From: a virus | Lineage: Duplodnaviria > Caudoviricetes | IMG/VR virus record: IMGVR_UViG_3300031785_000003 | Coordinates: 1-55,086 of that record | Strand: one strand, 5' to 3' | DNA length: 55,086 nucleotides | Shown here: one piece after another, positions 4,098 through 54,253 of the stretch | How the letters are laid out: every line of letters begins with the position of its first letter | Numbering within the stretch: the stretch's first letter is position 1 | Made by a program: the position numbers and the translations under genes | The notes under the pieces: generated by a model | Told to the model about the DNA's origin: nothing | Seen by the model: only the letters and a program-made list of their open reading frames with translations | Databases searched by the model: none

Positions 4098-4108
4098 AGG
4101 AGGTAATT

Positions 4109-6983: not shown

Positions 6984-6986
6984 CTA

Positions 6987-8099
6987 ATGGGTATGATAAA
7001 AACAAAACAAGAACTAATCGAGTACATAACTGAGGAGTATGAAGGCGATAGACATCTCAGGGCTTGGTGTATAGATGACAATATGGGAAGGAGGTTGGAC
7101 AACTACCATATGTTTGCAGAACATTTTAGAAGATGCCGTGATAAAGCTAAAGGTAGAAAAGTATCATCAGCCTTTAGAATGTTCAGCACAGTAGAACAAG
7201 GTGTCAAGTGTTATGATTTGCACATTGATGGGTACGGAAGTAATCCTTTTATGCGTATAACACCTGACAACATAGTGGAGTTTGTTGCTACACCTGATGT
7301 GGTAGTGCAACACGCACAGTCTGTGGTGTCCTCTGTTCATCGTTGGATACCATTCACTTTCGAAAGACACAGAAAAGGTCTGTATCGTGTGAATAGTTCT
7401 CAGCATTTCAACAAGGAGTACATACATATTACTAAGACAAACCTAAAAAGACTGAAGGAAGATGCTGAAAACTATGAAGGGGAGATGTCTGAATCTATCA
7501 TCAATAAGTTTCAAGGTGAGTGTTGGCGAAATGGTTGGACTACTTCGTCTAAGATTATGCGTCAATCCCCTGCATACTTTCAAGGTATCAAGTTCAACAT
7601 ACTTTCTGGTAATTGTTTGAATCGTAGATTTGATGACAAGTTCATTGAGAAACCTAAACAGCGAAAAGAATGGAGACAAGCACTAGCTAAGTTCAAACGT
7701 GGTATCAGAGCAAGAGCAAAGATTCGTGCCTTTGACCCATTAATTGAGAAGATGTGGGCAGAGAGACAAACACAGAATCATTACCATTGGAAACAACCTG
7801 ATTGGTCAAGTAATTCTTGGATGAGTTTACTTGAACAGTCAATACGAGACAACAAGTTTCCAAAAGAATTGTTGCTAGGTCTTTGTACTACACCACCAAC
7901 TGGGTACTATCAATCAGAGAAACCCACAAGTAATGATGTGTACAAGAGTACTTGTAAGATATTGGCTGACTGTTCAACAGAATTGCGTAGACGATTCAAT
8001 GTTTTTGAAAGTGAAGGACACGATGAAAGACGACAAGACAAGTACTATACTTATCACGAATCAAGAAACTTAACAATAGAAGAGGCAGGTAAAATATGA
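6987..8099 (+). CDS. Hypothetical protein
   Basis: 370 aa ORF, GAGGT SD, ATGA coupling to the next gene. Confidence 0.8.
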   Translation: MGMIKTKQELIEYITEEYEGDRHLRAWCIDDNMGRRLDNYHMFAEHFRRCRDKAKGRKVSSAFRMFSTVEQGVKCYDLHIDGYGSNPFMRITPDNIVEFVATPDVVVQHAQSVVSSVHRWIPFTFERHRKGLYRVNSSQHFNKEYIHITKTNLKRLKEDAENYEGEMSESIINKFQGECWRNGWTTSSKIMRQSPAYFQGIKFNILSGNCLNRRFDDKFIEKPKQRKEWRQALAKFKRGIRARAKIRAFDPLIEKMWAERQTQNHYHWKQPDWSSNSWMSLLEQSIRDNKFPKELLLGLCTTPPTGYYQSEKPTSNDVYKSTCKILADCSTELRRRFNVFESEGHDERRQDKYYTYHESRNLTIEEAGKI

Positions 8100-18763: not shown

Positions 18764-21700
18764 TTAATTATCTAGTTCAATACCCCATATCTCTGCCATC
18801 TCATCAATAGCATCACGGGATTGCTTTGGTGCAGTCTTTCTAAATCTTGCTGTTGCAGTTCGTCTTGCAGCTTTAAAAGATTTGTTTGCAGATTGGGTAA
18901 AGTTTCTAAAATAAAATTCTGAATCTCTACCTACGTCTTTGTTATGTTCATCTACAAACTTTAGTATCCTACGCATCTCACCTCTATCATTATCTAGTTT
19001 AGCTTTTACATAAGCCTGAATGTAATGTGCTTTCATAGATTTTAAATACGCTTGGTTTTGTCTGCTAGCTCTTATGATATCATTTTGTATTGATACAGAG
19101 TATGGATAAAAACCTAACATTCTCCAGAACACTGTCCACCCACCAACGTCTTTTGTTAAGACTGTACCATCTGCTTTAGTTATTCTTCCGTCTTCCATAT
19201 ATGAAAGACCATCAAATATTCCTCGTATAGCTGATGATGGGGCATCTCTTAATATAGACCTAAACTCTGTTGTGTCATCTTTGAGTCCTATGGTTTCAGC
19301 TCCATAACGAGCAAGTTGTGTTCCTGTAGCAAACAGTCCTGCTATTCCTGAGTACACTGGCCCTAAGAAATTTTTTGCTTCTTGCCAGTATTCACCTGAA
19401 TTATTCTTAGCTTGGAACACACCAGTCAGTGGAATTAAATCATTAAAACCAAGTCTTGTAGAGAAGGTAGCTCCAAGTACAGGGTCAAGTATTCCTCTCA
19501 TAAATATTGGTGACGCACCAGGAATGAGAGCATCAATAAGTTTACCTGCTTCCTGTTCAACAGTTCCCATTTTAATACCAAACTTTTGCGCTAATGTTTC
19601 AATTAAATCAGATAAGTCATCAGCAAATGGTAGACCTGATAGACCTGCAAGAACAAACAATGTGCCTAACATAGCGATCCTACCTTTAGGTGATAAGCCT
19701 TTCATTAACTGTACACTAACAATAACAAATTGTTTATACATGAAAATATATTGTGCTAAGTTTCCTCTAGCCATCTCAGGTCTGTTGTACATAGCATATT
19801 CACCCTGTGATGTGTTCACTGCCTTTGTTGCAAATGCCATTGCTCTTTGTTGTACAACCTCTTGTTCAGCTTCCGGAAGTTGAGCGAACCCTCCTTGGTT
19901 AGGATAATCAGTGGCTAGTATTCTTTCTCGTTCTAACCTATATGACGCAAGAAATGTAGCTCGTCTGTTAAGTTGTTCTGTATAAGAAAACATACTCATC
20001 CATGCTTTGATAGCACCATTGTAATTGTTACTAGCTCTACCGCCTCTTGATGTTCCGACTAATGCATTAAACTGTGCAGCCTGTAACACACCCGCACCTG
20101 TGGCTTCTAGCATAGCATTAGCTTCATCTTGTTCAATATTGTATTTAGCTAGTTCATCTGGGTCATTAGCTATTTTATATATAGTATCATAGTTAGCTAA
20201 ACCTCCTCTTTTTATATCAGACACAGCTCGTACCATTGCACCAGTAGAATTAGATAAACCAAATCCTCCACCATACCCTCTATTTTTATTATAAGTACCT
20301 AGGTATGGAATAGTGTGGGTAACCATAGACATTAAGTTAATTCCAGCAGTAGCAAACGAACCACCAAGTTGTAACAACACAGCGGCTAGTTTTAATCTTG
20401 AACCTACATCACCAGACAGTTGGTCTTCTGTTGAATCTACAATACTGGCAGAGTCAGAATAAAACTTAATTAATTTGTTAGCTTCTAATCTATAAGATTC
20501 GCCTCTACCTTCATTGGGTATAAAATCTTTGTTAGTTAAAGTTTCACCTCTTTCTGTTTTTTCTAGACCTTCTCTAGTTTTTGCTTGTTCTTGTGCATTT
20601 ATATCAGCAGAATGACTGTAAGCATATGCATATTGTTCATACTCTCTTTTAGCAGCTTCTCTTTGTTCCTCGCTACCTTTTCTTGTAGCTGCTTCAAGTC
20701 GTTTTAACTTATCAGGATCACCTTTAAAAAAATTATCGTTATCTAATATGTCATTAAGCTGCCATGTAAAAGTAACTTTTCCTGCAACATGCCCCATAGT
20801 TTCTAAATGTTCTGCAACACTTCGTACAACATCTTGATCCCACCCTGGGTTACCTGTTCTCTGTAAACTTTTTCTAGCTCTTTCACTAACTCCTGCTAGT
20901 GAGGTAACAACTCTTTGTCTTTCTTCTATAGTAAGTCCAATGTCTAATCTACTAACAATAGACATAAACTCTGTAAGATTTAATGTATTAGCAAGAGGTT
21001 GTGATTGTCTAGCTTCTGATACTTGTGGTCTAATTGCTACTACAACATCATTACCATCTGAATCTTTCATTTGGTATTTTATAGGTTTACCATCTTTATC
21101 TTGGACAAAATTTTTATTTAAATCATTCATTATATCCATTGCATCTTGTTCGCGCGCAGTTTGAAAATATGGTAGTGACCCAGCGAAATCTTCTTGTAGT
21201 TTAACAGCTGCACCATTTTTTACATTGTATGCCTGCATACGAACTTGGTATTTACCTCGTCTGGTAAACGGAACATAACCTGTCATCATAGTTCGTTTAG
21301 CTTGAAACTCTGCATTTACAATCTGTTGGTTATGTACAAATAAATTTTGAATAGTTCCTGTTATTTGAAAGGCTTTTTCTTTTCCATAATTTATATTAGC
21401 TAAATCTGGTAAGGAAGCAATGATGTCAGAAAATTCATCTGTTTGAAATTCAGCAGTATCGTCAAATGTTGGCTGACCAGTTTCTTTATCTATACTTCTA
21501 CCTGCCCAATCATCTAATTTTTTAGGCACCCACAATGCTCTGTTTATAGCTGCTATAAATCTTTTGCCTTTTTCAAATGATTCATTATTAATATTTCCTT
21601 CAAGGTCGGTATTTTCTCTTACTATTCTAGTATATTCTTCAATAATTCTATTAAAGGTTTGTATGTTTTCATCTGTAGGAAGACCATTTTGTCCTGCTAT

Positions 21701-24700
21701 ATTTTCAATATTGTTTAACGCTGCATCTTTTTGTCCTGTAGCAGAAAGTATATTTGCTTCAAGTACATCAATTGCAGCTTGGTTTACAGCATTTCTATTT
21801 TCTTCATATATTCTATAAGCATTGTCAAACTCTTTATCAGTTATAGCTTCACCTTTTTCATCTACTGTAAATGATTTTGTTTGTCTATCTTTATTAGGTA
21901 GTTGATATAAGATACCTTGTTTAAATTGTTCTTTACTAACTTTACCCATTGCTTCTAACGCACTACGTCTTTCAGTATCTATTACTGGTGCATCACCTTG
22001 TCTATTTAGTAAGGCTTCTTCTTGTTGTATACTGGCTGGAGTATGTTCATTAGCTTTAAACACAGCACCAAAAGCAAGCATCTCACCTCCTATTTGTAGT
22101 TCTCTTGCTGTTGGCCCTCCAGCTAATCCAAACCAATTTGGAGTGTGGGTATACGATGTCATTCTTTCATACTCAGACATTACTCTTCTAGTCTTACCAG
22201 CTGAACGCTGGAATATATTAAATATTTTTTGTAGTCCTTCACTTCTTTGAGCTTTGTTATCTAAAGTTTGCACAGTCTCAGCAACTCTTGCAAACAGTCT
22301 GCTAGTTGCTCTGCCTCTACCTTTAGGAAGATTTTTTAAATACTCTTGAAGTTTATCAAAACTACCAAAGGCTCCTGCTTTTTTATTAAGAGCATAAGCA
22401 TGTGTCCAATTAGTAGCATGTCCACTTGATACATTCTCCATAGAAAATCTACCCTGCTCAGCTTCTGATTCTAATGCTCTTATATTTTCTGCTATTTGTT
22501 TTACACCAACAACACCTTTACCACCTCTCATTAAGTTTCTACGAGATTGTCTTAAGAAGTACCGCGTAATATCTGCATCACCTATATTTATTAAATCACC
22601 CATACCTATTGTATCTAGTACAGCTTGAACTAAACTTCTGATACGATAAATTAAACTATTATCAAATGCTGCAGCTTTATCAGCAAGAACTTCTTCTACA
22701 GCTTCCATCATATCTATACCAGGGCGTGAACGCATTATAGTATCAGCAGCGGCTTTTACATGTTTATCTGTTCTGTATACTTCACGAAGAATAGCATCCA
22801 TTCTACTACGAGGCATGAAAGCACGAAAACCAAAATGCCCCAATGCCTCGTGAGCAACAACCAATCTTGCTTGTTCTTTTGATTTTATATAATCACTAAA
22901 GATTATAACTTGGTCACCAATAGAATATCCAGCTGCTTCTACTGTGTCAAAATCTTTGAGTGGTCTACCAGCTGCTGCGCGTCTGTAAAGCTCTGGGTTA
23001 CTTTGAGCTAGTTCTTGTACATTAGCGACTATAGTAACAGTTGGTTTTACTTTTAATTTGTTAAGAACTTTTTTAACAATGAGTTCTATCTCACCTCTAC
23101 CAAGAGGTTTTACAGGTTTACCATCTGCTCTACGAAATTTTCCTGAGTCATCAGTTTTTTGGTCAGCAGCTTCTACTTGAGCAGTAAGAGATTCTGTTGT
23201 GTTTTCTGTTGCGTCTTGGTTGGTTCCTCTTCTAAGTCTGCTTGCACCTGTTACTTGTGTTTCTGTTGTTTCAGGAGATGCATCAGGTACAAGTCTACCA
23301 TCATACATTCGTTTAACTTTTAACTTACCTCCAGTGGTAAAATAATCTTTTAGTTTACGACCATTAGCCATAGTGTATTCTTTATTTGAGTCGGCAAACA
23401 TCTGTTGCATTTGTTCTGTAGCAGGGTCAACTTTACCTGGAAGGTCAGTTCTTATTTCCATACCATAATTATATGCTCTATATGCACCTCCTTTAATATC
23501 TTGTTTTTCAAGATGTGAATTAATAAGTATGGCTAAGTTTTCACTTTGATTTTCTCTAAATTGTTTTTGTTTATCTGCTACATTTTTTCTACCAGATGCT
23601 CCAAGTGCTAGTTCATATAATTTTCTAAATTCATCCATAGGCATACTTTGACCAAGCAATTGTTTTTTACGCATTATATCTCGTAGTCTGTTTGCAGTTG
23701 CCTCACCAAGGACTGCTTCCTGTCCTGATATGTTTTCTGAAATTGCTTCTATTTGTTTGTTAGTAAACCATGTCGGCATGTCTGCAAGTGCAACTTCAAT
23801 TTCACTAACAAGATTTCTTTTTACAGCATATTCTAACCAAGGTTGTGTTTTACCTCCTATTGTTCCTTTAAGAGTAGCATCTTGACTACTAGCATTTATC
23901 ATTGCAATATAAGCCTTATCTAATGCTTGTTGCTGTAAAGAAGTAAAGTCGGTTAGGTTAAGATAGTTAATAGCCTGTTGTCTTATATCTTTATTTACAC
24001 CTCCTTGCGGATTAAAAAATGCAATCCCCATTAAATTATGGCCAAGCATTTGGGCAGGCCCGTAATCTTTAAATGCTTCTGGAGTTAAATCTACAACATC
24101 AAAATCTGCAATAATAGAATCAATTTCTTCTTGTTGAGAAATTCCGTCTACTCCTCTGTTATCTCTTGCTTCAAATTGTTCTAAAACTTCTTTACCTTGT
24201 ATATTTGTTAACGCAGCTAAATCGCCATTGACTGTATCTTCGGCGACTAAATTACTCCAAAGTGTTTTTAATTTAAATACTTGTTTTGTTCGAGGATGCG
24301 TAACATCTTCTGGTAATCTATCATAAGATAAAGCACCTCCTACAGTTAATGCATTCCACATTTCACGAGGTGTTCTACCTTTAACAGGTACAAAGACATT
24401 ACTTACGAAAGCGATTGATTCCTGAGCGCGTTTTTGCCTAGCGTCTTGGTCAGCTTCCCTAGCTGCTCTTTTTTCATCTTTCGTTGCAAACGCAATCTCG
24501 CGAGTTGTCGCTTTTCTGATTTGCTCCTGGAGCCTATTCTTTTGGGCAGTTGTAAGTTGCTGGGCGTCTCCTCTTCGAATCGCTTGGCCAGCTCCGGTTT
24601 GTTGGCGTACATCCACTTCTTCTGGGCTTCTGATTTGAACGGCATCTTGACTCCTTTCTATTTCTTCTTGTGTTGTTGGTGCTGCTACTCGTCTTCTTAA

Positions 24701-27310
24701 TCGTTCAGGAACTTCACTAGTTACTTGTTCCATATCTGCTATAAGATTATTTTGTTCTGTTAAATCATTGTTATCTAAAGCATTTTGAAAATCAATAATG
24801 TAATCGTTTATTGTATTCTGATCAAAACCTTGTTGTTGCATTTTTGCTAAAAGCGGTGCAATAGCAATAGCTCTATTAGGAACAGGAATAGGAAGTCTTT
24901 CTTGTCCTGCATCTTCTAACTCAGCTTGTGTAGGTTCTGCGACAGCTTCACCTTTTCGTAGTGTTTGTTGTGCAGTTGTTACTGGAGCTGGGCGAGGTAT
25001 TCCTGGTATTCTTAATTGTCTAGGTTGTCTAGCAGGTCTTTCTGGTATAGGAATTGTGTCTCGTCTAAGGCGAAATAATTCTCGTTGTATAGCAGTTAGT
25101 TCATCTTCTGAAATTAAACCTTCCATTGCTCGGTCTACTGTATTTATGTCTTCTTGGTCTATTATATCTGGAAAACCTCTTAAATATCTTTCCTCTGTTT
25201 GTCTAGCTTGCTCTAATCTTTGTTGTTCCATTCGTTGGATTTGTTGCTGTTGTGCTTGTTGTTGAGCTTCATTAAACTCTCTTTGTCTTTGTGCTAGCTC
25301 AGCTTCTTGTTGATTAATCTGTCGTAGTATAGCAAGTTGATTTTGCTGTTGTTCAATTTGATTTTGCTGTTGTTGAATTGTATTACTAGCTAGTAGAAGT
25401 TGTTGTCCTGCAGGTGTCTGTTGCGTTTCCTGTGCACTCTGAGTAGGTGTATCAAATGGAATTGTTTGCTGTTCTAACGGAAGTACTTGTTGTCCTGCTT
25501 GCTCTAGCTCAGTTGGTGTAGGCTCTGGTGTAACCACAGGTGCTGGTTGCTGTGGTATTTCTGATAATTGATTTAAATCACGAGCAGTAACTGGTTGTTG
25601 GGGTGGAAATATAATCCCCTGTTGTCCTTCAGTTTGAGCCGGCAGCACAGGTTGATTAGCCTGAACTACTGTATCCAATGGGTCTCCTTCACGAGTCTGT
25701 TGACCTGCTACAAAATTAGGAGGCCCAGATACCTGAGATATAGGAGGAACAGGAGGAGGAATAATTGGAGCACCACCTGGTGGTAATTGATCTGGTGAAG
25801 GAGGAGGCTCAGGGCCTAAGACATCACCTTCGATACCAGGACTTGGTAATAATTTTTGGTCAGCTTTTGGTTCAGTTTTATTTAATATATCAGTAGCTTC
25901 TCCTCGTTTAAGAAGATTAGCACCACCACCTAGTGGGCCACCAATAGCAAAACCTGCTGCAAAAGCATTGATTAATCGTTTACCTACTTCAGCATCACCT
26001 AATTGTCCTGTACCTGCAAGAAGAATACCTTCTTGTCCAACTTCAGTAAGACCTTCAAGTGTACCACCAACTGCTAAACCTTTACCTGCTCTTACAACTC
26101 TATTACCTTTTGTAAGAAGTTCAGGGCCAACACCAAAGATACGACCTGCTAGAAAAAATTCTGGAAGAGTTTCAAGTGCTGCATATGGTATAGCACCAAG
26201 AGCTGCTGTGGCTCTATTACCTACACCTGTGTCTCGCACTTCACCATAGATGTCACCTATACCCATAAGATAACTACCAGCTGTAGAAGTTATAGCAGCA
26301 CCTCCTGCCATAGCTTGACGTCTACCTTGCTTAAGTGCCCCTCTAGCACCACCTAATAATTCATCAGCTTCAAGTTTACGAAGCTGACTAGCGGTAGCTA
26401 ATGACCCAGGTTTAGGTCTAAGAGAAGCTGCACCATACAGACCTGCACCTTCACGAAGTAATTTTCTTTCACCTTTTGTAAGTTTTTGTCCGTTACTATA
26501 TTTTGTGGCGGCTTTTAATAATTCTTTTTTTACTTTACTTCTACCAAATACACTAAGTATAGCACCACCTGTAGCAGTAAAAGGGTTAGCACCACCACCT
26601 GCAACTGCACCTGCTCCAGCACCAGCAAGAGCTACCAGTATTGACTCTATTAAGTTTGGCCCTTGTTGTGCTAAGTTAGCAACAAACCAATCTATTGCAC
26701 CATGTCCACCTTCGTTTTCAAAATAATCAATGCTAGTAAATTCTCTTTGAAATGGTTGGTTATAATATAATTCTTGTGCCGCACTGTCTACCCAGTTCTG
26801 CCCTAGTTCTTCTGCACCAAGAAACTGTGCAGCTCTACCAGCAAGTAACTTTAGATTACTACCACCTATCTCAAAATTTCTTGCCATAAGAGTACCCTTA
26901 CCAGGGTCTTCTATATTTCTCATATAGTTCTTATAAGAATCAGGAGATACGCTTTGCCAGTCTGGGGCATCAGGTACAGTAGTAGCTCTAGGTTTATCTA
27001 AGAATCCTTGACCTTCTGCATCTAGTGCTGACTGTGCATCATCAGCATCATACAGTGCACCATTGACAAACATTTTATTTTGAGAAGGACTAAACAATAC
27101 AAGAGGCCCTGTCTTAGGAGGCTGGTTAGTAGATAACAAAGCAGATTCTAGTGAGTCAGCTTCTTGTTGTAGTTGTATAAATGGGTCAGCAGCATTTGCT
27201 CCAAGTTGTGATTTACCACTGATTGGGTCAAAAGGATTACCTGTTCCAGGAGCACTGGTAGCATCGTAGAAGTTACTTGAGAAAGGTTGTAATCCTGCTT
27301 TTTTTACCAC
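18764..27310 (-). CDS. Giant internal virion / DNA-ejection polyvalent protein (2848 aa)
   Basis: G/A-rich N-terminal helices, P/Q-rich linker, HEALGH zincin-like motif (22852-22835), helical C-terminal region; last gene of the late arm; GTG start overlaps upstream TAG. Confidence 0.85.
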   Translation of the reverse strand: MVKKAGLQPFSSNFYDATSAPGTGNPFDPISGKSQLGANAADPFIQLQQEADSLESALLSTNQPPKTGPLVLFSPSQNKMFVNGALYDADDAQSALDAEGQGFLDKPRATTVPDAPDWQSVSPDSYKNYMRNIEDPGKGTLMARNFEIGGSNLKLLAGRAAQFLGAEELGQNWVDSAAQELYYNQPFQREFTSIDYFENEGGHGAIDWFVANLAQQGPNLIESILVALAGAGAGAVAGGGANPFTATGGAILSVFGRSKVKKELLKAATKYSNGQKLTKGERKLLREGAGLYGAASLRPKPGSLATASQLRKLEADELLGGARGALKQGRRQAMAGGAAITSTAGSYLMGIGDIYGEVRDTGVGNRATAALGAIPYAALETLPEFFLAGRIFGVGPELLTKGNRVVRAGKGLAVGGTLEGLTEVGQEGILLAGTGQLGDAEVGKRLINAFAAGFAIGGPLGGGANLLKRGEATDILNKTEPKADQKLLPSPGIEGDVLGPEPPPSPDQLPPGGAPIIPPPVPPISQVSGPPNFVAGQQTREGDPLDTVVQANQPVLPAQTEGQQGIIFPPQQPVTARDLNQLSEIPQQPAPVVTPEPTPTELEQAGQQVLPLEQQTIPFDTPTQSAQETQQTPAGQQLLLASNTIQQQQNQIEQQQNQLAILRQINQQEAELAQRQREFNEAQQQAQQQQIQRMEQQRLEQARQTEERYLRGFPDIIDQEDINTVDRAMEGLISEDELTAIQRELFRLRRDTIPIPERPARQPRQLRIPGIPRPAPVTTAQQTLRKGEAVAEPTQAELEDAGQERLPIPVPNRAIAIAPLLAKMQQQGFDQNTINDYIIDFQNALDNNDLTEQNNLIADMEQVTSEVPERLRRRVAAPTTQEEIERSQDAVQIRSPEEVDVRQQTGAGQAIRRGDAQQLTTAQKNRLQEQIRKATTREIAFATKDEKRAAREADQDARQKRAQESIAFVSNVFVPVKGRTPREMWNALTVGGALSYDRLPEDVTHPRTKQVFKLKTLWSNLVAEDTVNGDLAALTNIQGKEVLEQFEARDNRGVDGISQQEEIDSIIADFDVVDLTPEAFKDYGPAQMLGHNLMGIAFFNPQGGVNKDIRQQAINYLNLTDFTSLQQQALDKAYIAMINASSQDATLKGTIGGKTQPWLEYAVKRNLVSEIEVALADMPTWFTNKQIEAISENISGQEAVLGEATANRLRDIMRKKQLLGQSMPMDEFRKLYELALGASGRKNVADKQKQFRENQSENLAILINSHLEKQDIKGGAYRAYNYGMEIRTDLPGKVDPATEQMQQMFADSNKEYTMANGRKLKDYFTTGGKLKVKRMYDGRLVPDASPETTETQVTGASRLRRGTNQDATENTTESLTAQVEAADQKTDDSGKFRRADGKPVKPLGRGEIELIVKKVLNKLKVKPTVTIVANVQELAQSNPELYRRAAAGRPLKDFDTVEAAGYSIGDQVIIFSDYIKSKEQARLVVAHEALGHFGFRAFMPRSRMDAILREVYRTDKHVKAAADTIMRSRPGIDMMEAVEEVLADKAAAFDNSLIYRIRSLVQAVLDTIGMGDLINIGDADITRYFLRQSRRNLMRGGKGVVGVKQIAENIRALESEAEQGRFSMENVSSGHATNWTHAYALNKKAGAFGSFDKLQEYLKNLPKGRGRATSRLFARVAETVQTLDNKAQRSEGLQKIFNIFQRSAGKTRRVMSEYERMTSYTHTPNWFGLAGGPTARELQIGGEMLAFGAVFKANEHTPASIQQEEALLNRQGDAPVIDTERRSALEAMGKVSKEQFKQGILYQLPNKDRQTKSFTVDEKGEAITDKEFDNAYRIYEENRNAVNQAAIDVLEANILSATGQKDAALNNIENIAGQNGLPTDENIQTFNRIIEEYTRIVRENTDLEGNINNESFEKGKRFIAAINRALWVPKKLDDWAGRSIDKETGQPTFDDTAEFQTDEFSDIIASLPDLANINYGKEKAFQITGTIQNLFVHNQQIVNAEFQAKRTMMTGYVPFTRRGKYQVRMQAYNVKNGAAVKLQEDFAGSLPYFQTAREQDAMDIMNDLNKNFVQDKDGKPIKYQMKDSDGNDVVVAIRPQVSEARQSQPLANTLNLTEFMSIVSRLDIGLTIEERQRVVTSLAGVSERARKSLQRTGNPGWDQDVVRSVAEHLETMGHVAGKVTFTWQLNDILDNDNFFKGDPDKLKRLEAATRKGSEEQREAAKREYEQYAYAYSHSADINAQEQAKTREGLEKTERGETLTNKDFIPNEGRGESYRLEANKLIKFYSDSASIVDSTEDQLSGDVGSRLKLAAVLLQLGGSFATAGINLMSMVTHTIPYLGTYNKNRGYGGGFGLSNSTGAMVRAVSDIKRGGLANYDTIYKIANDPDELAKYNIEQDEANAMLEATGAGVLQAAQFNALVGTSRGGRASNNYNGAIKAWMSMFSYTEQLNRRATFLASYRLERERILATDYPNQGGFAQLPEAEQEVVQQRAMAFATKAVNTSQGEYAMYNRPEMARGNLAQYIFMYKQFVIVSVQLMKGLSPKGRIAMLGTLFVLAGLSGLPFADDLSDLIETLAQKFGIKMGTVEQEAGKLIDALIPGASPIFMRGILDPVLGATFSTRLGFNDLIPLTGVFQAKNNSGEYWQEAKNFLGPVYSGIAGLFATGTQLARYGAETIGLKDDTTEFRSILRDAPSSAIRGIFDGLSYMEDGRITKADGTVLTKDVGGWTVFWRMLGFYPYSVSIQNDIIRASRQNQAYLKSMKAHYIQAYVKAKLDNDRGEMRRILKFVDEHNKDVGRDSEFYFRNFTQSANKSFKAARRTATARFRKTAPKQSRDAIDEMAEIWGIELDN
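24403..24645 (-). CDS. Overprinted small basic protein (80 aa), +1 frame inside the giant gene
   Basis: AAAGGAG 5 nt before ATG; MPFKSEAQKKWMYANKPELAKRFEEET; local GC increase. Confidence 0.75.
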   Translation of the reverse strand: MPFKSEAQKKWMYANKPELAKRFEEETPSNLQLPKRIGSRSKSEKRQLARLRLQRKMKKEQLGKLTKTLGKNALRNQSLS

Positions 27311-32616: not shown

Positions 32617-35015
32617 GCTGTCCTCAATCCATATGGAGTTTCACCTATATGTATTGCCCGTATCCTTGCTGAACCTGAAACTCCTATTTCAAATGTATCA
32701 CTTCTATATCCGCTTGGCAATCTAAATACATCGTCAGAACTTACTGTCCCTTGAAATATTAACTGTTTGTCAACAAACAATTTAAAAGTAACTGGTAATA
32801 CTCCTGAAACTTCTAGTTGAAACTGCGTTTGTGCATCTGCATTTATTGCATATGAGTTTAATGTACCTGAATTTTCTACTCTATTTCCAGAATCCATATA
32901 ATCAGTTGGCCCGTTAACTGTACCAAGTTGTTCACTTTTAGCCCAGATTGCAGCATTGTTAGTAGGTACATTATTATTAAAATTTATAATATTTTCTGTT
33001 TCTGTAGCTGATGCATCAAAATCTGCAATAACTCTAGCAGCTCCAAGATTCATAAAATCTTTTGTAATAATAGCTTTTGACTTCCATTCTAATGGAGAAA
33101 GAACTTCATTTTTATTATCCCATTCATATAAATTACCTTGATTATCTCCTATATAATACATTACACCTGTTTGATAATCAGTGCATGCTGCAGTAAAAGT
33201 ATAGTTTATACTTACAAGAAGTCCTCCTACAGTATCATCTCTTTCAAATATAAACGAAGAAGCTGAATGAGAACCAAAATATTTACCATTGTAATAATGT
33301 CCAATAAGAGTAGCAGGGTCAAGAGCTGCATTCCAGGTATCCCAGTCGTGTACTAATTTAGTCGCAATGTCTGTACCTTGTGAAGGAGCATGACTAGCAA
33401 GCCCTCCGTGAGTAGCCCATAAAACAGCGTATCCCATATTAACTACAGATTTTTTAGAAAGACACGGATATAAACTATCAATACGAGCAGATGCCATAGT
33501 AGCAGGATCATTACCTGACACTTGATATGGATACTCTTTTGTAAGCACTAATATAAATCCTTGTATAGGTTCTATTGCTACAATGTCTGAATCAAAAGTC
33601 ATTCTAAATCGTTCAGGCCATGCATGTGGTTTATCAGGAAATGAAAAACATAACTGATTATCAAAAAATCCAACAAGTATATTGTTATGCGCTGCACGAA
33701 TACCTTTCATACCTGTAGGTGGTGGGTCGTTATCTTCAGAATCTAATATCCTAGATAAACCTGACACAAGAAAATTATCTGTAAAGTTAAAACTACTATC
33801 ACCCCAATATACTGCTGTTTGACTTAATGATTCAGCTACATCGTGAAACACAGTACCATTAGTATCAGCAGTTTCAGAAATAGCATTACCACTGTCAGTA
33901 AATGTAAACGAATACTTATCAACAATAGAAGCTACAGTAAATGTACCATTCATACTACCGCTATCTGTAGTCATACCAGATAGCTTAAATCTATCATCTA
34001 AAATAAAATTATGAGGGTGTGCTAAAGTTAAAGTAACTGTACTACCAACTCGTTTTACTTTAGTAGTAGTTGTTGGAAACCATAATGTCTTTAATAAAAA
34101 ATATTCTGTAGCTGCTGCAGAAACAACAGTTCTATATAACCTTACACCTCGCACAAAATTTTGAGTTGGTGAACTAGGTTTTTGTTGTGGTATGTTACTA
34201 ACTGTTACAGTTTGTCCTTCTTTAATATACACCTCAGCAGAGGGTAAAGATGGTATAGACTCTTCATCCCAAGGTGTAATCCATGTATAAACATATGTTC
34301 TAATCTGTGTGTTACCTGCCATATCAGCACGACCACTAGTGTTTGCTGTTTTTGCAACTTGGTCTCCAGGACTAAAATATGAAAAGTCAGTAGTGTTAAG
34401 AACAGTAATTTCTACATTAGTAGCATTAAAGGCTTTAGCTTCATCAGATGTACCAAAGTCTCTAACAGTAACAATATTACCTGAGCGTAAGTTGTGAGTT
34501 GTTGCTCCATAAAATGTTGCAGTATTACCACTATCCCTTTCATAGTGTGTAGCACTTACAACAGAAAATGATACTGCTGCAGTATTTAAAGTAGTTGTAG
34601 GTAAAGGTAATCCAAGGTCATAATATCCGTTTGTTACTGGATATGGAGCACTTCCATTAGTAGCTAAATCATAGTTAGATACTTTGGGTGTACCATCACC
34701 TGTGTAATAAAATCTTTGCTCAGTATCTTCTGTTGATGTAGTAGTTGTCCAAGGAGAAGAAGCAGTAGCAATATCTACATCATTAAGATAAGTAAGAAAC
34801 ACATTAGCATTGTTAGTAGGATTAGTAAGTTTATATAATGTTTGAATTGTACCTGTTCTTCCAATGTTTTCAACTAGCTTTGGAGTTCTATAAGGTATAA
34901 GGTCACCAGAATACAACTTAACATTATAAGCTGTTTGAGCTGCTCCATCAGGTAATAACTCCTCAGATATTTTTGGAGCTTCACCTAAAAATTTTAATAA
35001 CTTTACTGAACCCAT
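32613..35015 (-). CDS. Tail nozzle / tubular protein B-like stabilisation protein
   Basis: 800 aa beta-rich; F.GE.PK....LLP, CFS.P..PHAWP, WKSK; podovirus gene order. Confidence 0.75.
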   Translation of the reverse strand: MGSVKLLKFLGEAPKISEELLPDGAAQTAYNVKLYSGDLIPYRTPKLVENIGRTGTIQTLYKLTNPTNNANVFLTYLNDVDIATASSPWTTTTSTEDTEQRFYYTGDGTPKVSNYDLATNGSAPYPVTNGYYDLGLPLPTTTLNTAAVSFSVVSATHYERDSGNTATFYGATTHNLRSGNIVTVRDFGTSDEAKAFNATNVEITVLNTTDFSYFSPGDQVAKTANTSGRADMAGNTQIRTYVYTWITPWDEESIPSLPSAEVYIKEGQTVTVSNIPQQKPSSPTQNFVRGVRLYRTVVSAAATEYFLLKTLWFPTTTTKVKRVGSTVTLTLAHPHNFILDDRFKLSGMTTDSGSMNGTFTVASIVDKYSFTFTDSGNAISETADTNGTVFHDVAESLSQTAVYWGDSSFNFTDNFLVSGLSRILDSEDNDPPPTGMKGIRAAHNNILVGFFDNQLCFSFPDKPHAWPERFRMTFDSDIVAIEPIQGFILVLTKEYPYQVSGNDPATMASARIDSLYPCLSKKSVVNMGYAVLWATHGGLASHAPSQGTDIATKLVHDWDTWNAALDPATLIGHYYNGKYFGSHSASSFIFERDDTVGGLLVSINYTFTAACTDYQTGVMYYIGDNQGNLYEWDNKNEVLSPLEWKSKAIITKDFMNLGAARVIADFDASATETENIINFNNNVPTNNAAIWAKSEQLGTVNGPTDYMDSGNRVENSGTLNSYAINADAQTQFQLEVSGVLPVTFKLFVDKQLIFQGTVSSDDVFRLPSGYRSDTFEIGVSGSARIRAIHIGETPYGLRTA

Positions 35016-35530
35016 TAATCATCTACCATTTCTAAAGCAACTTCTGTTACATCATTATTTCTATTAGTCCAACCATTTCCAAATGTATCAAAAGTATCTA
35101 GGCTTTTATAAAAATCTTGTCTTACTTGTTTAAATTTTTCTACCATATATCTTTTGTTTTGTCCTTCTAATAACGCTAATGTTTTAGGGCCAATTATACC
35201 ATCAGGTTCTGCTCCACAACATTTTTGTAATCCTTTAGAACTTCTACTTACTCCGCTGTTTACTGCCCAATCAAAAACTATATAGTCTATACCAGAAGGT
35301 AAAAAATCACATCTAGCTTTTTCCCAATAATTTTCTAGGTATATTGGAGCAACATCTTCTGGTGTAAGTTTTTTCATATCTTCTTCAGTAACCTCGTGGC
35401 CTACCCAATCTTCATATACTTTTTTAGTAACTCCAAGATTAGTTATACCTCCGGGATCACTAGGATGATTTACATATCCCCCTTCATGTTTTAATAAAAG
35501 CTCTAATGCTTTATCAAAATTTTCTTTCAT
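35015..35530 (-). CDS. Endolysin, glycoside hydrolase family 108 with peptidoglycan-binding domain
   Basis: HEGGYVNHPSDPGGITNLGVT, FDWAVNSG, DGIIGPKT, FGNGWTNR. Confidence 0.95.
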   Translation of the reverse strand: MKENFDKALELLLKHEGGYVNHPSDPGGITNLGVTKKVYEDWVGHEVTEEDMKKLTPEDVAPIYLENYWEKARCDFLPSGIDYIVFDWAVNSGVSRSSKGLQKCCGAEPDGIIGPKTLALLEGQNKRYMVEKFKQVRQDFYKSLDTFDTFGNGWTNRNNDVTEVALEMVDD

Positions 35531-35907
35531 TTTTTAGTATCCGTTTTTTTGTATTTGTCAAAACTTCTCAATCCTGAAATTCCTAGCATACCGAATAAAA
35601 GCGGCATCATGACTGTCATGTCAGCCTGAGGAATTACAATACCAAACCCTGCCATAATTGGTGAAACCATATAGTTAATAGCAAGCGACAGCCCGCAAAT
35701 CCAACCAATTAGGGGGCGCCACGATGATTGAAACCAGTTACCTTTTGCTTCTGCTTTGTTAACTTCTATTTGTTGAAGGGCAAGTTGCTGGGCATGTTTC
35801 TCTGCCATAGTGGCTATGTCGTGGCTCAACTTTTGTTGTAAGTCTTTGTCTTTAACAAACTTACCAATTAACTTTGTTGCTGGGCCTATAAGTGCTGTTA
35901 GTGCCAT
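35527..35907 (-). CDS. Holin (3TM, GTA-holin-like)
   Basis: WRPLIGW, GMLGISGLRSFDK; adjacent to endolysin. Confidence 0.85.
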   Translation of the reverse strand: MALTALIGPATKLIGKFVKDKDLQQKLSHDIATMAEKHAQQLALQQIEVNKAEAKGNWFQSSWRPLIGWICGLSLAINYMVSPIMAGFGIVIPQADMTVMMPLLFGMLGISGLRSFDKYKKTDTKK

Positions 35908-36901: not shown

Positions 36902-37111
36902 TTATCCCATTTTATTTTTCTTTGATTTTTTAATCTCATCTTGTAATGCTTTTGGTAATGTTTTTTGAGCTTTAGTTAAGATACCACCGTTACCAAATTT
37001 TGGTACTAGCCCACCATTTTTATACATAGCTACATTTTTCTTTTTCTTTATTTCACCACCATAACCATACATTTTCTTTTTCTTTTTGTCTTTCATCATA
37101 TAACCTGGCAT
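36902..37111 (-). CDS. Small Lys-rich protein with three [YF]xxGG motifs
   Basis: AAGGAGG SD; YGYGGEI, YKNGGLV, FGNGGIL. Confidence 0.85.
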   Translation of the reverse strand: MPGYMMKDKKKKKMYGYGGEIKKKKNVAMYKNGGLVPKFGNGGILTKAQKTLPKALQDEIKKSKKNKMG

Positions 37112-50235: not shown

Positions 50236-50457
50236 TCATTTTGACTTTGCTGAAAACGTTTCAGGGGACTGTTCTATTAACCTAGTAATTTCTGACAAAA
50301 CTTGGCACCGCCCCTGTGCAAGTGCTGTGTTTTGCAAGACACTTGGTAGCGTCTGTAACTCGTGATCGCGCCATTCCTTTAACCATTCTAAGATTTCAGG
50401 ATACTGACGACTCACTGTAGCTATAGACTTAACAACCTCTGGCTTTGGACTAATCAT
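50236..50457 (-). CDS. Small protein between portal and scaffold
   Basis: 73 aa, AQGR motif, ATGA coupling to portal. Confidence 0.8.
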   Translation of the reverse strand: MISPKPEVVKSIATVSRQYPEILEWLKEWRDHELQTLPSVLQNTALAQGRCQVLSEITRLIEQSPETFSAKSK

Positions 50458-52496
50458 CCAGCACCTCCAGTGTCACGGTTGCTCACTATGTTTCCATCTC
50501 TTCCTCCTTGAGGAGAACCATCAGGTTGAGTAGGTGTAGGCTGTGCTTGCTGTGTTTTTTCTTGCATAGCTTGCATTTGTGCTTTCACTTTGTCCTCAAA
50601 CTTTTCTTTCTCTCTAGACGGAATAATGTCATCCACAGGCATTTGCAAACTCTTAGCCACTTCACGAAGAATCGCTGCACGGCCATCCTTGCCAACGATT
50701 GCCATATCGGTTTCGTTGGCGGTTGCATTAAGAAATTCTAAACGGCGAACATTTACAGTTTCTTTAACTGCAAGATTAACTGCACCTTTTGGTACTATAT
50801 TAACATCGCCTTTAATTGATTCATCTTCATCATAACGCATATTGTACACAAACTGTCTGTGTACTACTGGTTTTATAATCTCATTATCTATGTGCATAAC
50901 CACTTGTCGTATACCTTTACCAGCTGCACCCATTAACATAGACAAACCAGAAGATGTTCTACCGGCGCCTTTGACATCCAGGTCACCATACACATAGGCT
51001 GGTATACCTGAATGGTCATCGGCTAGCTTGGAGAATTTATCATAAACACCTAACAATGTATTTGCATTGTCATCTGGTTGTGTAAATCTAACAGCAGGTG
51101 AACTAGAGCCCAGTGGGTCATTTGTTACTTGCCAGATTTTCCACGGGTGGAGCTGCGTGATGTCTTCGTTCGGCGGGATTCTTTCGAGGTTGACTTCGAC
51201 TTGGGGGCCTGACGAAATGCCCATATTGTTGACCAAAGCTCTCGCAGCCGCGTTACACACATTTTGTAAATCTTCAATAATTTCTGGTATGCCTTTACCC
51301 CAAAACGCACCGGGGCATTTAATAAACGAACTTTTCGCATAAGGTTTTTCTCCTAAAGGGTCATAGTTTAATACTGCTTTAATAATGTAGTTGCCTACAG
51401 CCCAAACATTAGCATCATATTCTTTTGATTCATCAGGTACTTCTTCTTCAGTAAGTCCCCACTCTTTCAACATCTTACCACTTACTTTACCCCAAAATTC
51501 TAAAGCATCATAAGTTGTAGTAGGTTTGTTGTGTGTATGAAACTTTCTTTCTTCTTGTTCTTTAGTAAGTTCTACGTCTTCACTAAACCAAGATGTACCA
51601 TTGCCAACATCAAGTACTTCTCTAATAGCATCATCATCGTAACCCGGAACACCAACTAGGTCTGCTAGTTCCGAACGACTCAAAGGATGATGCTGAAATA
51701 AATAACCTTCATTAAGATTAGTTATACCTGGTTCAGGATATATTCTAAATGGATCGACCCTTTCAAACTCTGGAGCAATAATCTCATCTGCTTCTACAGT
51801 AGTTCTACCATCTTCATATTTCCAACCAAGTTTTCTTTGTCTACGAACCACGGGGCCTTTTATAAAACCACAAGGGTAAGTAACCAAATCTGTTATAAAA
51901 TCATTAAATGATTCGCCCCAGCCACCTTGTGTAAACTGGTCTCGAATCTTAATATCCATTTTCTTTGCACGATTATCTGCAGCTTGTAATAATTTAAAAC
52001 GATAATCTTGTGTCACCATTTCTTTTAACTCAATCATTTCTTCTTGGGTTGGTGCTTGTCCGTTCATCTCAACAATTTTTACAACTTGTTCAGCAAACGA
52101 ATTTTCTATCTCTGCAGTTTGTTGTGGTGATAAATCTGGAATAGGTGTAGGTTCTAAACCCCATGGAGGCGAACCTTGATCAAGTAAAATATCTCGTAGC
52201 CAACTTTCAGCTGCACGACATTTTACTTCTGTAATCATCATATAAACATCAGACCCACCTTGTTGATTAATCTGTGCTAATTTATCTGCTTCATATTCTC
52301 CGTTTCTTTGACGAAGTCCTTTCAGCATAATGTTTTCAATAGGCTTTTTTGCTGTTCTTGCAGCATCCCAACAAGTTCGTAAGTGAGAAGCTAAGCCAAG
52401 AATAAGAGGGTCGTTTTGTCTTTCAGCAATCTCTTGTTTTATAGCAGCTTCTTCTTGCTTTACTAAATCTTCATTACCTATGACTTTTAGTACCAT
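50454..52496 (-). CDS. Portal protein
   Basis: 680 aa between TerL and scaffold; G.IKGP, FWGKG, TSSGLSMLM, Q-rich tail. Confidence 0.9.
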   Translation of the reverse strand: MVLKVIGNEDLVKQEEAAIKQEIAERQNDPLILGLASHLRTCWDAARTAKKPIENIMLKGLRQRNGEYEADKLAQINQQGGSDVYMMITEVKCRAAESWLRDILLDQGSPPWGLEPTPIPDLSPQQTAEIENSFAEQVVKIVEMNGQAPTQEEMIELKEMVTQDYRFKLLQAADNRAKKMDIKIRDQFTQGGWGESFNDFITDLVTYPCGFIKGPVVRRQRKLGWKYEDGRTTVEADEIIAPEFERVDPFRIYPEPGITNLNEGYLFQHHPLSRSELADLVGVPGYDDDAIREVLDVGNGTSWFSEDVELTKEQEERKFHTHNKPTTTYDALEFWGKVSGKMLKEWGLTEEEVPDESKEYDANVWAVGNYIIKAVLNYDPLGEKPYAKSSFIKCPGAFWGKGIPEIIEDLQNVCNAAARALVNNMGISSGPQVEVNLERIPPNEDITQLHPWKIWQVTNDPLGSSSPAVRFTQPDDNANTLLGVYDKFSKLADDHSGIPAYVYGDLDVKGAGRTSSGLSMLMGAAGKGIRQVVMHIDNEIIKPVVHRQFVYNMRYDEDESIKGDVNIVPKGAVNLAVKETVNVRRLEFLNATANETDMAIVGKDGRAAILREVAKSLQMPVDDIIPSREKEKFEDKVKAQMQAMQEKTQQAQPTPTQPDGSPQGGRDGNIVSNRDTGGAG
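51125..51340 (-). CDS. Candidate overprinted basic protein (71 aa), +1 frame inside portal
   Basis: AGGAG 9 nt before ATG; portal codons switch to C/G endings within the overlap. Confidence 0.5.
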   Translation of the reverse strand: MRKVRLLNAPVRFGVKAYQKLLKIYKMCVTRLRELWSTIWAFRQAPKSKSTSKESRRTKTSRSSTRGKSGK

Positions 52497-52873: not shown

Positions 52874-54253
52874 TCAAGTCCAGCCTCCTGCTGCAACCTT
52901 TTTTATTTCACGCCTCTGTACAACAAATCCTCCTTCACCTGTAATGCCGACATGCAACATAAAATATTGTAGTGCTTCTGCTACATGAGAATGTTTGTTT
53001 TTATCTATAGTACCATTTTTGTAATGGAATCTATATCCTCCCATCATCGCTGCCTTAAGCTGTGTACATCTAGGGTCAACTAAAAAAGCTGAGTCCCCAT
53101 CGACTTGTCTCATAAGAAAGTCGTCTACCGCAGACAGTCTCGCAGATACATTATTGGTTTTAGCTGGGAGAACTCTAAAACCTTCAGCTTTGATTATATC
53201 TACGGCAGACCTCTCGTCAGTCTGTGCTCTTTGCACTCCTGCTGGATCAGTAACAATTAAAACGGGTGCGCCCGCGAACCTATCAGTCAACAACGGGCGC
53301 AGAATAGTGCGGATAAATCTTTGTATTCCCATATCAAAACTAACAGCTTCATCAAGAATCAAGACTCGCCCACGAGGGTCTTGCTGTCCTATAACAGCAG
53401 CTGGTGTCAAACCTAAGTCTATTCCAACTACAACTGGTCGTACTCCATTTATAATAGGTTTTATTTTTTCATTAGCCATATGATAGTCTGGTCTAAAGTA
53501 TTTATATACAGGCTGACCTGCAGAACTCATTCCATATTCGCCGTCTATATACACACGAATATATTCGTCTGACCTACCTTGCGTATCATAATAACCTTCA
53601 GGTAGATTGTTTATATTTTCTGCTAAGGAGCTTCTACCCGAAGGTTGTTTGAATACATCCCACCCGTTATCATTGATACTCACTCCATCTGAAATATCTA
53701 AACCTTCCATCTGGTAGTACCACCATGTATCCATTGTGGGAGGGTTAGTGTCCCCCCACATCCCAAACCATGAAGGGCCGCCATCCTTAGATGATGGGAA
53801 TCGCCCTATACGTTTTGACATAGCATCAACAATATCAGGGTTAATATCCCTGCACTCGTTGAACCATGCAAACGTTAATTCTAATGAGTTCAAGTTTGCT
53901 ACATCGTCAGAGTCATCAAGAGCACGAAACATAATCTCACACTCTACATCTCCAACCTTGAAGAAATATGTTTTAGTAGTACGCATATAGTCTCCACATA
54001 TTCCAGGTGGAAACCAATCGTGAAAAGTTTTTATTGTTGTATCCTGTAACTGCCTGGCAGTTTCACGAACAATAGCTACTCGCGATTTACGAATACCTTG
54101 TTTGTTAGGCTTCTGCATTGTAGCTCGTCTGATAACTTCAAAACAACTTGCCACAGATTTACCAGAACCAACTGGCCCCATAAGCACACGCATCTTTGCA
54201 TTCGACATCATAAAGTCTTTACATGTTTTAGATGGTGTGTAGTCTATATCCAT
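52874..54253 (-). CDS. terL: Terminase large subunit
   Basis: Walker A GPVGSGKS, Walker B AWFNE, DTNPP, nuclease GIDLG, TDPAG, SHVAEALQY. Confidence 0.93.
   Translation of the reverse strand: MDIDYTPSKTCKDFMMSNAKMRVLMGPVGSGKSVASCFEVIRRATMQKPNKQGIRKSRVAIVRETARQLQDTTIKTFHDWFPPGICGDYMRTTKTYFFKVGDVECEIMFRALDDSDDVANLNSLELTFAWFNECRDINPDIVDAMSKRIGRFPSSKDGGPSWFGMWGDTNPPTMDTWWYYQMEGLDISDGVSINDNGWDVFKQPSGRSSLAENINNLPEGYYDTQGRSDEYIRVYIDGEYGMSSAGQPVYKYFRPDYHMANEKIKPIINGVRPVVVGIDLGLTPAAVIGQQDPRGRVLILDEAVSFDMGIQRFIRTILRPLLTDRFAGAPVLIVTDPAGVQRAQTDERSAVDIIKAEGFRVLPAKTNNVSARLSAVDDFLMRQVDGDSAFLVDPRCTQLKAAMMGGYRFHYKNGTIDKNKHSHVAEALQYFMLHVGITGEGGFVVQRREIKKVAAGGWT

Follow-up and report, generated by a model that had tools for sequence, protein, structure and literature searches.

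A 71-codon open reading frame in the +1 frame of a phage portal gene, a probable overprinted gene in environmental tailed phages

The DNA analysed here (the window) comprises positions 1 to 55,086 of the IMG/VR virus record IMGVR_UViG_3300031785_000003 (Duplodnaviria; Caudoviricetes). It resembles a whole marine phage genome of ~55 kb with a GC content of 37.7%: the plus strand carries the replication genes, and the minus strand carries a long structural module. Our subject is a 71-codon open reading frame (ORF) that lies inside the portal gene, on the same strand but in the +1 frame, and which, from comparison with related portals, we take to be a real, selected overprinted gene with a probability of roughly three in four.

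The portal gene and its nested frame

The host gene matches Pfam family PF23899 (SU10_portal) with 49.9 bits against a cut-off of 30 (E = 2.3e-13), passing the gathering score, and it also matches phrog_332 and phrog_1216. A tblastn search with the portal found annotated portals in 37 cultured phage records, including HMO-2011, CRP roseophages, pelagiphages and Rhizobium phages; all are below 60% identity, those in the rows listed lying at 24–33%. A PDB sequence search with the portal gave no match, and residues 386–457 are hence unplaced on any solved fold. The nested frame opens within the minus-strand sequence TTAGGAGAAAAACCTTATG, and the features of the overlap are as follows.

50454..52496, minus strand: portal gene, host frame of the overlap; 680 amino acids (aa), SU10-type
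51355-51353, minus strand: TAG in the +1 frame, four codons upstream of the internal ATG; overlaps the Shine–Dalgarno (SD)-like element and shuts the +1 frame there
51354-51350, minus strand: AGGAG, SD-like, from portal codons Leu381 TTA, Gly382 GGA and Glu383 GAA
51340-51338, minus strand: internal ATG after a spacer of 9 nucleotides (nt), at offset +1 in portal codon 386 (T-ATG-CG)
51125..51340, minus strand: candidate overprinted +1 ORF, 71 codons plus TAA, portal codons 386-457
51127-51125, minus strand: TAA ending the nested ORF, made by portal codons 457/458 (GTA ACA)
51159..51323, minus strand: ten stop-capable portal codons (392, 406, 407, 421, 422, 427, 433, 435, 437, 446), all with endings that do not form a stop
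51129..51266, minus strand: patch rich in G+C at third codon positions (GC3), portal codons ~411-456, the C-terminal S/T/R/K-rich half of the +1 peptide
51132-51206, minus strand: core of the patch, GC3 0.76
51306..51308, minus strand: Ala397 GCG, a rare codon, giving Arg12 of the +1 peptide
51144..51176, minus strand: Pro441 CCG, Pro442 CCG, Thr447 ACG and Pro451 CCG, rare G-ending codons, giving Arg56, Arg57, Arg62 and Arg66

The minus-strand layout reproduces that proposed by the initial annotation (AGGAG, nine nucleotides, ATG and a 71-codon +1 ORF across portal codons ~386-457), and its description of the product as K/R-rich, with an amphipathic N-half and an S/R/K tail, is correct: 21 of the 71 residues are Lys or Arg and two are Asp or Glu, giving a net charge of about +19 and an isoelectric point of 11.9. 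With GGAG, GAGG or AGGA upstream of 30 of 40 window genes, SD-led initiation is the usual mode here. The pattern AGGAG-N5-10-ATG occurs 30 times in the window, mainly at true gene starts. The portal's own start has a weak, badly spaced SD-like match; the internal site has AGGAG. Ribosomes would start independently at the internal AGGAG and ATG on the late portal mRNA, and the product would be a small, very basic, largely α-helical Arg/Lys-rich peptide made late.

Taken in the window genome alone, the nested ORF would be an ordinary chance ORF, and the signal beats chance only at the level of the family. The local chance of finding codons 386–456 stop-free in this genome is 0.009, and a codon-permutation test on the single genome, a check that the initial annotation had proposed, gives a borderline result (P = 0.04); given that there are ~40 genes in the window, this value is not significant on its own.

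Codon choice in the overlap among related portals

At least 598 related portals are present in IMG/VR, the best 80 being kept per scan; two further scans that started from divergent members raised the number of loci to 237. A portal frame of at least 1800 nt without N was present at 226 of these (11 were dropped for length or N), and together with the window copy they gave 227 frames, 150 of them unique, which dereplication at 95% nucleotide identity reduced to 84 representatives, window included. Some of the analyses used a smaller set of 42 representatives. The number of +1 stops expected in each representative was calculated from its own amino-acid sequence and gene-wide codon usage; over the whole gene, this calibration gave observed/expected ratios of 0.89 in the +1 frame and 1.06 in the +2 frame (42 representatives). 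Across the family, whose members share 61–97% overall identity, protein segment 380–460 is nearly invariant whereas third codon positions vary freely, and it is within this most conserved segment of the portal that the gene would sit.

Over codons 386–456, the 42 representatives contain 22 +1 stops against 124 expected (0.18), and 32 are stop-free against 2.4 expected; in the set of 84, there are 60 stops against 194 expected (0.31, compared with 0.87 for the whole gene), and 54 representatives are stop-free. The openness of the +1 frame in related portals, which the initial annotation had singled out for checking, is therefore borne out for 54 of the 84. The +2 frame has a normal stop frequency over the same codons. 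All ten stop-capable columns are depleted in the larger set, with observed/expected values of 3/12.1, 3/14.5, 3/12.2, 4/19.0 and 13/35.5 at codons 392, 406, 407, 421 and 422, and of 3/9.1, 6/15.5, 12/35.8, 8/18.5 and 1/14.0 at codons 427, 433, 435, 437 and 446. By permutation of column order, which preserves the phylogenetic over-dispersion of each column, a run of sensitive columns so depleted has P = 2.5e-5 with 42 representatives and 1.45e-4 with 84. Because the region had been chosen for being open in this genome, the whole 19-member low-GC clade that includes the window was taken out as an ascertainment control; the 65 representatives left have 55 stops against 135.5 expected, 36 are stop-free against ~11 expected, and the most depleted run again starts at codon 392.

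The avoidance is specific to those contexts in which a stop would form. Within codons 386–456 of the 84 representatives, Val, Leu and Ile codons that precede a purine-starting codon take a purine ending at 0.40 of expectation; before a pyrimidine, the value is 1.01, and for other four-fold codons it is 1.08. Among the 42 representatives, ATA is the commonest codon at Ile403 (24 of 42), where the next base is C, but at Ile392, 406, 407 and 446, where the next base is A or G, it is found in only 0, 0, 3 and 1, respectively. Columns elsewhere in the portal with equal amino-acid conservation have a stop ratio of 0.96. Since the avoidance depends on context and equally conserved columns do not share it, translational accuracy or a general preference for pyrimidine endings at conserved sites is ruled out. 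The depletion is also seen in an AT-rich representative that lacks the GC3-rich patch, L045 (GC3 0.27, patch GC3 0.37), which has no +1 stop against 5.3 expected.

The start is likewise maintained through unusual codon choice, answering affirmatively the question, raised in the initial annotation, of whether the SD is conserved. At Gly382, 29 of the 84 representatives use GGA, the source of GGAG (10.2 expected); at Leu381, 35 use TTA or CTA (18.6 expected), so that column 381 forms a +1 stop at the same counts; and at Tyr386, 48 use TAT, the source of the ATG (38.0 expected). The ATG is present in 46 representatives, 37 of which also have GGAG or GGGG, and these 37 have nine +1 stops against 89.9 expected. 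Among low-GC3 representatives, those with the ATG have five stops against 79.6 expected, and those without it have nine against 10.8. In a portal tree built without codons 380–465, intact and broken ORFs are interleaved, the intact ones being spread over at least eight separate clades. The initial annotation regarded +1 stops in related portals as a sign against an overprinted gene, and such stops are indeed present in 30 of 84 representatives; these are mostly lineages that also lack the ATG or the SD, however, and a distribution in which stops fall mostly where the ATG or SD has been lost fits gene loss. One such lineage is L026, a member of the window's own low-GC clade. Its SD has disappeared (CTA GGT GAA), +1 stops number five where 4.8 are expected, and the codons of its patch have ordinary AT endings (GC3 0.29). 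To judge from these differences, it acts as a natural knockout.

Within ORF-intact clades, the synonymous-constraint signal is clear. In the low-GC clade (104 between-subclade pairs), synonymous divergence is lowest in six 20-codon windows, all at codons 386–460 (0.57–0.70), with lows of 0.57–0.63 at 386–415 and 0.70 at 436–460; pairs with the ORF-broken L026 give 1.35–1.40 at 431–460. In the AT-rich clade D (L045, L063, L065, L070 and L072), the five lowest windows of the portal are at 421–460 (0.30–0.47), and in clade F, all eight lowest are at 386–445 (0.30–0.59). Control sets lacking an intact ORF, of which two have +1 stops and the third is open but has no ATG, give 0.64–1.19.

Particular arginines of the +1 peptide are also maintained. 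Ala397 is GCG (+1 Arg12) in 29 of 36 intact representatives against 6.8 expected, and in seven of 30 broken ones against 8.3; Thr447 is ACG (+1 Arg62) in 23 of 36 against 5.9, and in seven of 30 against 7.6. Of the intact representatives, 24 have CCG at Pro451 and 18 have it at Pro441 (8.0 expected in each case), and 33 of the 36 have ATC at Ile440 (+1 Ser55), a codon that 10 of the 30 broken ones use there. Moreover, when 20 of the 36 intact representatives, picked across clades, were compared with stop-free synonymous recodings drawn by a sequential sampler, the net charge of the peptide was above that of the recodings in 17 of the 20 lineages (z = +5.4 for the window). What comparison of the relatives shows is that selection keeps the frame open and preserves the start, the SD and specific arginines by means of codons that are rare in the portal frame; and that the open frame, start, SD and arginine codons decay together in those lineages that lost the gene.

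Among distant cultured phages, HMO-2011, CRP-3, HTVC033P and phiM6 have 6–8 +1 stops in the homologous region. In RHph_TM3_14A, the region is open, but its GC3 is 0.72 and it has no ATG. None of these five cultured relatives carries an annotated nested coding sequence.

A weaker second trough of +1 stop depletion lies at portal codons ~541-651 (~50545-50875), with ratios of 0.55–0.68 in the 42 representatives and 0.58–0.64 in the 65. It is patchy: columns 565, 573, 581 and 586 have stops at or above expectation, and there is no continuous conserved ORF.

The GC3-rich patch and its two alleles

The GC3 of the portal is 0.25 overall, and a sliding window along it, as proposed in the initial annotation, reveals a real patch, the most extreme in the window: the 25-codon peak of 0.76 at codons 431–455 is the highest of 14,477 such windows in 38 ORFs, the runner-up (0.68) being in the terminase gene. 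The 19 C/G-ending codons listed in the initial annotation are found exactly as quoted. Its proposal that these endings serve to remove +1 stops holds for four of them, Val433, Val435, Leu437 and Ile446, which alone are stop-capable, but not for the others, and T-ending codons would dodge +1 stops just as well. Instead, the G/C endings mainly spell Arg, Ser and Thr in the +1 peptide.

Two alleles of the C-terminal half can be distinguished: an S-type, whose tail reads ...SKESRRTKTSRSSTRGKSGK, and a more hydrophobic L-type, with the tail ...LSVSRRMKTLRNFIRGKFGK. Our reading is that the patch in the window represents the hydrophilic S-type. S-type patches have third-position identities of 0.75–0.96 among low-GC lineages, against 0.41–0.54 at the remaining third positions of the same lineages; low-GC subclades saturated at those remaining positions thus have almost the same nucleotides in the patch. 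The window's patch is 97.6% identical to that of L021 (74% elsewhere) and only 80% identical to that of L003 (85% elsewhere). More generally, third-position identity profiles of the portal are strongly mosaic across the relatives (L001-L242), the closest relative of the window changing between 25-codon segments. These profiles, together with the occurrence of both S-type and L-type tails in each of three subclades, show that recombination occurs within the family, and the profiles point to its being frequent and of short patches. The initial annotation had allowed that the patch might track a segment recombined from a higher-GC relative. None of 83 relatives emerged as a GC-rich donor: the closest GC-rich match has a third-position identity of 0.71, as against 0.92–0.96 among low-GC relatives. 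Given the lack of a GC-rich donor and the existence of the two alleles, the patch is therefore best read as the probable outcome of protein-level selection on the +1 tail combined with allelic exchange, rather than as an import from a GC-rich phage.

Several further features of base composition were recorded. The GC-rich relative L048 (GC3 0.72) has a window-like AT-ending stretch at codons ~396-420. On the plus strand, a 91-aa antisense ORF (51067-51342) lies over the same GC3-rich patch, and we take it to be a by-product of the local scarcity of AT-rich stop triplets; GTC or GTT followed by AAC in the portal frame gives stops in another antisense frame. Local GC3 maxima are also found near codon 158 of the terminase large subunit gene (52874-54253, minus strand; 0.68 against 0.31 for the gene) and near codon 573 of a primase/helicase-like gene (15664-18519, plus strand; 0.64 against 0.26). 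GC3 differs sharply between modules, at 0.10–0.20 in the tail/structural genes (27310-48255, minus strand), 0.25–0.32 in the portal, capsid and terminase genes, and 0.28–0.47 in the early and replication genes (3105-8099, plus strand).

The predicted peptide, rival explanations and significance

A structure prediction with AlphaFold2 (AF2), based on a 36-sequence alignment, gives a single helix spanning residues 9–62 of the peptide, with predicted local distance difference test (pLDDT) values of 88–89 at residues 21–40. The peptide sequence contains no signal sequence, lipobox or membrane span; its sole Cys, at position 28, follows Tyr-Lys-Met. If the gene is real, the leading candidate function, at a little under an even chance, is a nucleic-acid-binding or charge-neutralizing peptide acting in packaging or in the virion. 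A cationic lysis accessory that acts on membranes in the manner of a disruptin is a less probable alternative, whereas a role for translation alone, in tuning portal expression, and some other function are both minor possibilities. The disruptin gp28 of coliphage phiKT is described by Holt et al. (10.1101/515445) as a 56-aa helical protein of net charge +7, without homologues, that replaces spanins, and the screening rule given there (fewer than 80 aa, a net charge of at least +4 and a predicted α-helix) is one that the +1 peptide passes. The two have in common that they are small, highly cationic, predicted to be α-helical and without homologues. However, gp28 as described there is free-standing in a lysis cassette, whereas the +1 peptide is encoded inside the portal gene, 15 kb from the following holin/endolysin pair; it is also longer, of much higher net charge and much more hydrophilic.

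35527-35907: holin
35015-35530: endolysin

No spanin was recognized among the 45 window ORFs scanned, several small ORFs beside the lysis cassette lying outside that scan. A free-standing 69-aa Lys-rich ORF near the tail-fibre/lysis region (36902-37111, minus strand), which begins MPGYMMKDKKKKKMYGYGG..., predicts another small, very basic protein in this genome.

Rz1 of phage lambda is embedded in Rz on the same strand, in the +1 frame and with its own start. The arrangement here is alike in that a larger phage late gene would fully enclose a small one that has its own start and is read in the +1 frame of the same strand; by contrast, Rz1 is a lipoprotein with a signal sequence and a lipobox, and its host gene encodes its partner, whereas here the host gene is the portal and the peptide has neither. 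An embedded, Rz1-like outer spanin was accordingly rejected on the basis that there is no hydrophobic N-terminal region and no lipobox Cys, taking the lipobox as it is generally defined. Overprinted lysis genes are also represented by E of phiX174, inside D, and by L of MS2. As in those cases, an essential gene would have given rise de novo, from another of its frames, to a short protein, but E and L have a hydrophobic membrane domain, which the window peptide lacks. The Rz/Rz1 spanin complex is named in PMC10865782, and phiX174 E and MS2 L are named as single-gene lysis proteins in 10.1101/2023.10.16.562596. With overprinted viral accessory proteins in general, the subject of the reviews PMC8227390 and PMC6195259 and of the method paper PMC6188560, the peptide shares an unusual composition and taxonomic restriction; the logic of ORF length and codon permutation used to detect such genes applies to it too, with the borderline outcome given above. 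Most documented cases come from small RNA or single-stranded DNA viruses, whereas the host gene here is the portal of a ~55-kb tailed double-stranded DNA phage family. Unlike them, moreover, the portal ORF was detected mainly through frame-specific stop avoidance across relatives. The literature that we found, at the level of titles and abstract openings, describes no gene nested out of frame within a portal gene.

In 4 of 35 intact relatives, all of mid-GC lineages, the +1 ORF extends to 120 aa, with a basic N-terminal part followed by a hydrophobic, membrane-like C-terminal end (e.g. ...AVLLMIILVFLLMSMAT). These extensions may be chance in GC-richer DNA.

L042:2654-3013: 120-aa version
L062:2094-2453: 120-aa version
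L069:2654-3013: 120-aa version
L173:1457-1816: 120-aa version

The portal ORF is not the only candidate of its kind in the window, the initial annotation having suggested that this phage repeatedly nests small basic proteins in essential virion genes.

24645..24403, minus strand: second nested +1 ORF, 80 aa, basic, with AGGAG 5 nt upstream of its ATG, inside a 2848-aa gene (18764-27310)

This second ORF has a weak match to phrog_1375 (E = 0.002). L243 contains a homologue nested in the same fashion; over the bases that the two frames share, identity is 60% for the nested frame and 49% for the host frame. A free-standing 45-aa homologue in L244 (1501-1638) shares the N-terminal MPFKSEAQKKWMYANKPE motif. 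A search for related loci with the segment of the giant protein around the ORF found no relative. The second ORF is very probably a real gene; it therefore raises the prior for the portal ORF, and the nested and free-standing homologues provide independent support for repeated nesting.

A number of observations weigh against the portal ORF being a gene, and they are best considered together. Synonymous codon shuffles within the portal give an ATG-started +1 ORF of at least 71 codons in 4.1% of cases (5000 shuffles; P = 0.041). Once the window's own clade is set aside, the permutation test gives no better than P = 0.015; the representatives are phylogenetically non-independent; and the portal is visibly mosaic, such that recombination could spread an open allele and inflate the apparent conservation. 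Pooled synonymous divergence in the overlap is hardly lowered (0.83–1.08 for all pairs and 0.86 for intact–intact pairs, compared with 0.97 for broken–broken pairs), and the C-terminal half alternates between S/T/R/K-rich and L/K-rich from clade to clade. The ORF is interrupted in 30 and the ATG missing in 38 of the 84 representatives, from which the gene would be dispensable or often lost. As regards the peptide, the AF2 model consists of only one helix, with a mean pLDDT of 67.5, and there is no match to a Pfam or PHROG family. A word-indexed search of 5.8 billion proteins, with proteins of 39–125 aa as candidates, returned nothing, and a profile search of 1.84 billion representatives gave five matches, with no free-standing homologue among the three that were fetched. 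Metatranscriptome contigs, from four of six RNA runs, cover parts of the portal including 51026-51249, but DNA carry-over is possible, and the contigs are uninformative on transcript ends, strand, initiation and translation. A search of the ESM Atlas with the peptide gave no match either.

The three fetched profile matches (P0001, P0003 and P0004) are fragments of portals: each starts in the portal frame and passes into the +1 frame by way of single-base indels in metagenome contigs at GGAGAAAAA or TTTTGGGG runs. The other two, of 608 and 559 aa, are multi-stretch matches with E values of 1.8e-6 and 6.5e-4.

One rival idea is that the open frame is a chance by-product of a GC3-rich segment moved by recombination within the most conserved part of the portal, with no peptide made or needed, and with the SD-like element and ATG simply following from the invariant Leu-Gly-Glu-Lys-Pro-Tyr-Ala. 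The modest single-genome P value would be expected on this basis, as would the lack of homologues of the peptide, the antisense ORF that the same patch opens, and the mosaic structure of the portal, in which the patch is closest to L021 and the rest closer to L003 and both tail alleles recur in three subclades. We nevertheless consider it improbable: stops are depleted in AT-rich lineages without the patch, such as L045, and only in stop-forming contexts; GGA and TAT, rare codons from which the SD and ATG are built, are enriched; the start and the open frame decay together; only intact lineages are enriched in rare Arg-making codons; the relatives include no evident donor of higher GC; and L026, which lost its SD, carries as many stops as expected and has normal AT endings in the patch. 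Equally improbable, in our estimation, is that only the act of translation matters, tuning portal synthesis or shielding the late mRNA, and that the peptide itself is functionless. Such a role would accommodate the variable character of the C-terminal half, the disparity between the portal's own weak, badly spaced SD and the internal AGGAG, the finding that the region is no more structured than shuffles (z = +1.2), and the fact that stop avoidance and SD/ATG conservation far exceed the overall constraint (0.86 family-wide). It would, however, have no need of site-specific +1 arginines encoded by rare codons, of a net charge that exceeds the recoding null in 17 of the 20 lineages, or of the strong synonymous constraint within clades (0.30–0.47 in clade D).

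Programmed +1 frameshifting typically involves a shift-prone codon, with a slow codon or a stop codon in the A site. Were the +1 frame the landing frame of such an event, the product would be a truncated portal (residues 1 to ~385) with a basic tail, and AGGAG would be the stimulator, as in prfB; an SD-like element does lie directly upstream of an A-rich run (GAAAAACC), and P0001 passes from the portal frame to +1 exactly here. This is very unlikely, since there is no known +1 slippery pattern, slow codon or stop codon; the A-run is interrupted in ORF-intact relatives (GAG AAG CCT in L027, L029, L035 and L042); the ATG, which a frameshift does not need, is conserved above expectation and co-varies with openness; and a +1 stop lies four codons upstream, overlapping the SD. 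From its sequence, we read P0001 as a one-base deletion, a contig indel rather than recoding. The slimmest prospect of all is that the target of the constraint is not a protein but a nucleic-acid element, be it an RNA structure, a site for packaging or recombination, or an antisense feature. Over ~70 nt (codons 433–456), lineages that are 41–54% identical at third positions elsewhere are 92–96% identical, as such an element might require, but the region is predicted to fold less stably as RNA (−60.4 kcal/mol) than its shuffles do on average (−66.7 kcal/mol; z = +1.2), Rfam contains no match to it at E ≤ 1, and the scan found neither a promoter-like site on the coding strand nor a terminator-like site. 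Moreover, a nucleic-acid element would not yield frame- and context-specific stop avoidance over 71 codons, nor the linked ATG and SD. An overprinted gene with a selected product is our preferred reading of the nested ORF.

A more inclusive picture can be offered only tentatively. In an abundant marine podophage family, the invariant core of the portal might be a dual-coding module that also specifies an Arg-rich helical +1 peptide. Such a peptide could conceivably have a function of its own, either as a packaging or virion DNA-charge neutralizer, or as a disruptin-like lysis peptide that replaces spanins. Its S-type (hydrophilic) and L-type (amphipathic) C-terminal alleles may, on this same speculative footing, be shuffled among subclades by recombination; and the second basic protein, nested in the giant virion gene, might make overprinting inside essential virion genes a recurrent route by which these phages gain and protect small accessory genes.

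Gene callers never report out-of-frame nested genes, and the 5.8-billion-protein collection does not contain the portal peptide; small genes of tailed phages that are real can therefore go unseen. The evidence here is drawn from hundreds of environmental relatives, including a lineage that appears to be a natural knockout, and in this interpretation, selection on a second frame would have produced an island of high GC3, made of rare Arg-making codons, in an AT-rich genome. If the gene is real, the extreme conservation of this portal segment may partly reflect dual coding, studies of lysis or DNA packaging would gain a new candidate class of small, cationic peptides from phages, and the context-specific stop-avoidance test could be used at scale on metagenomic phage families. 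It would also mean that even the most conserved virion genes can hide extra genes.

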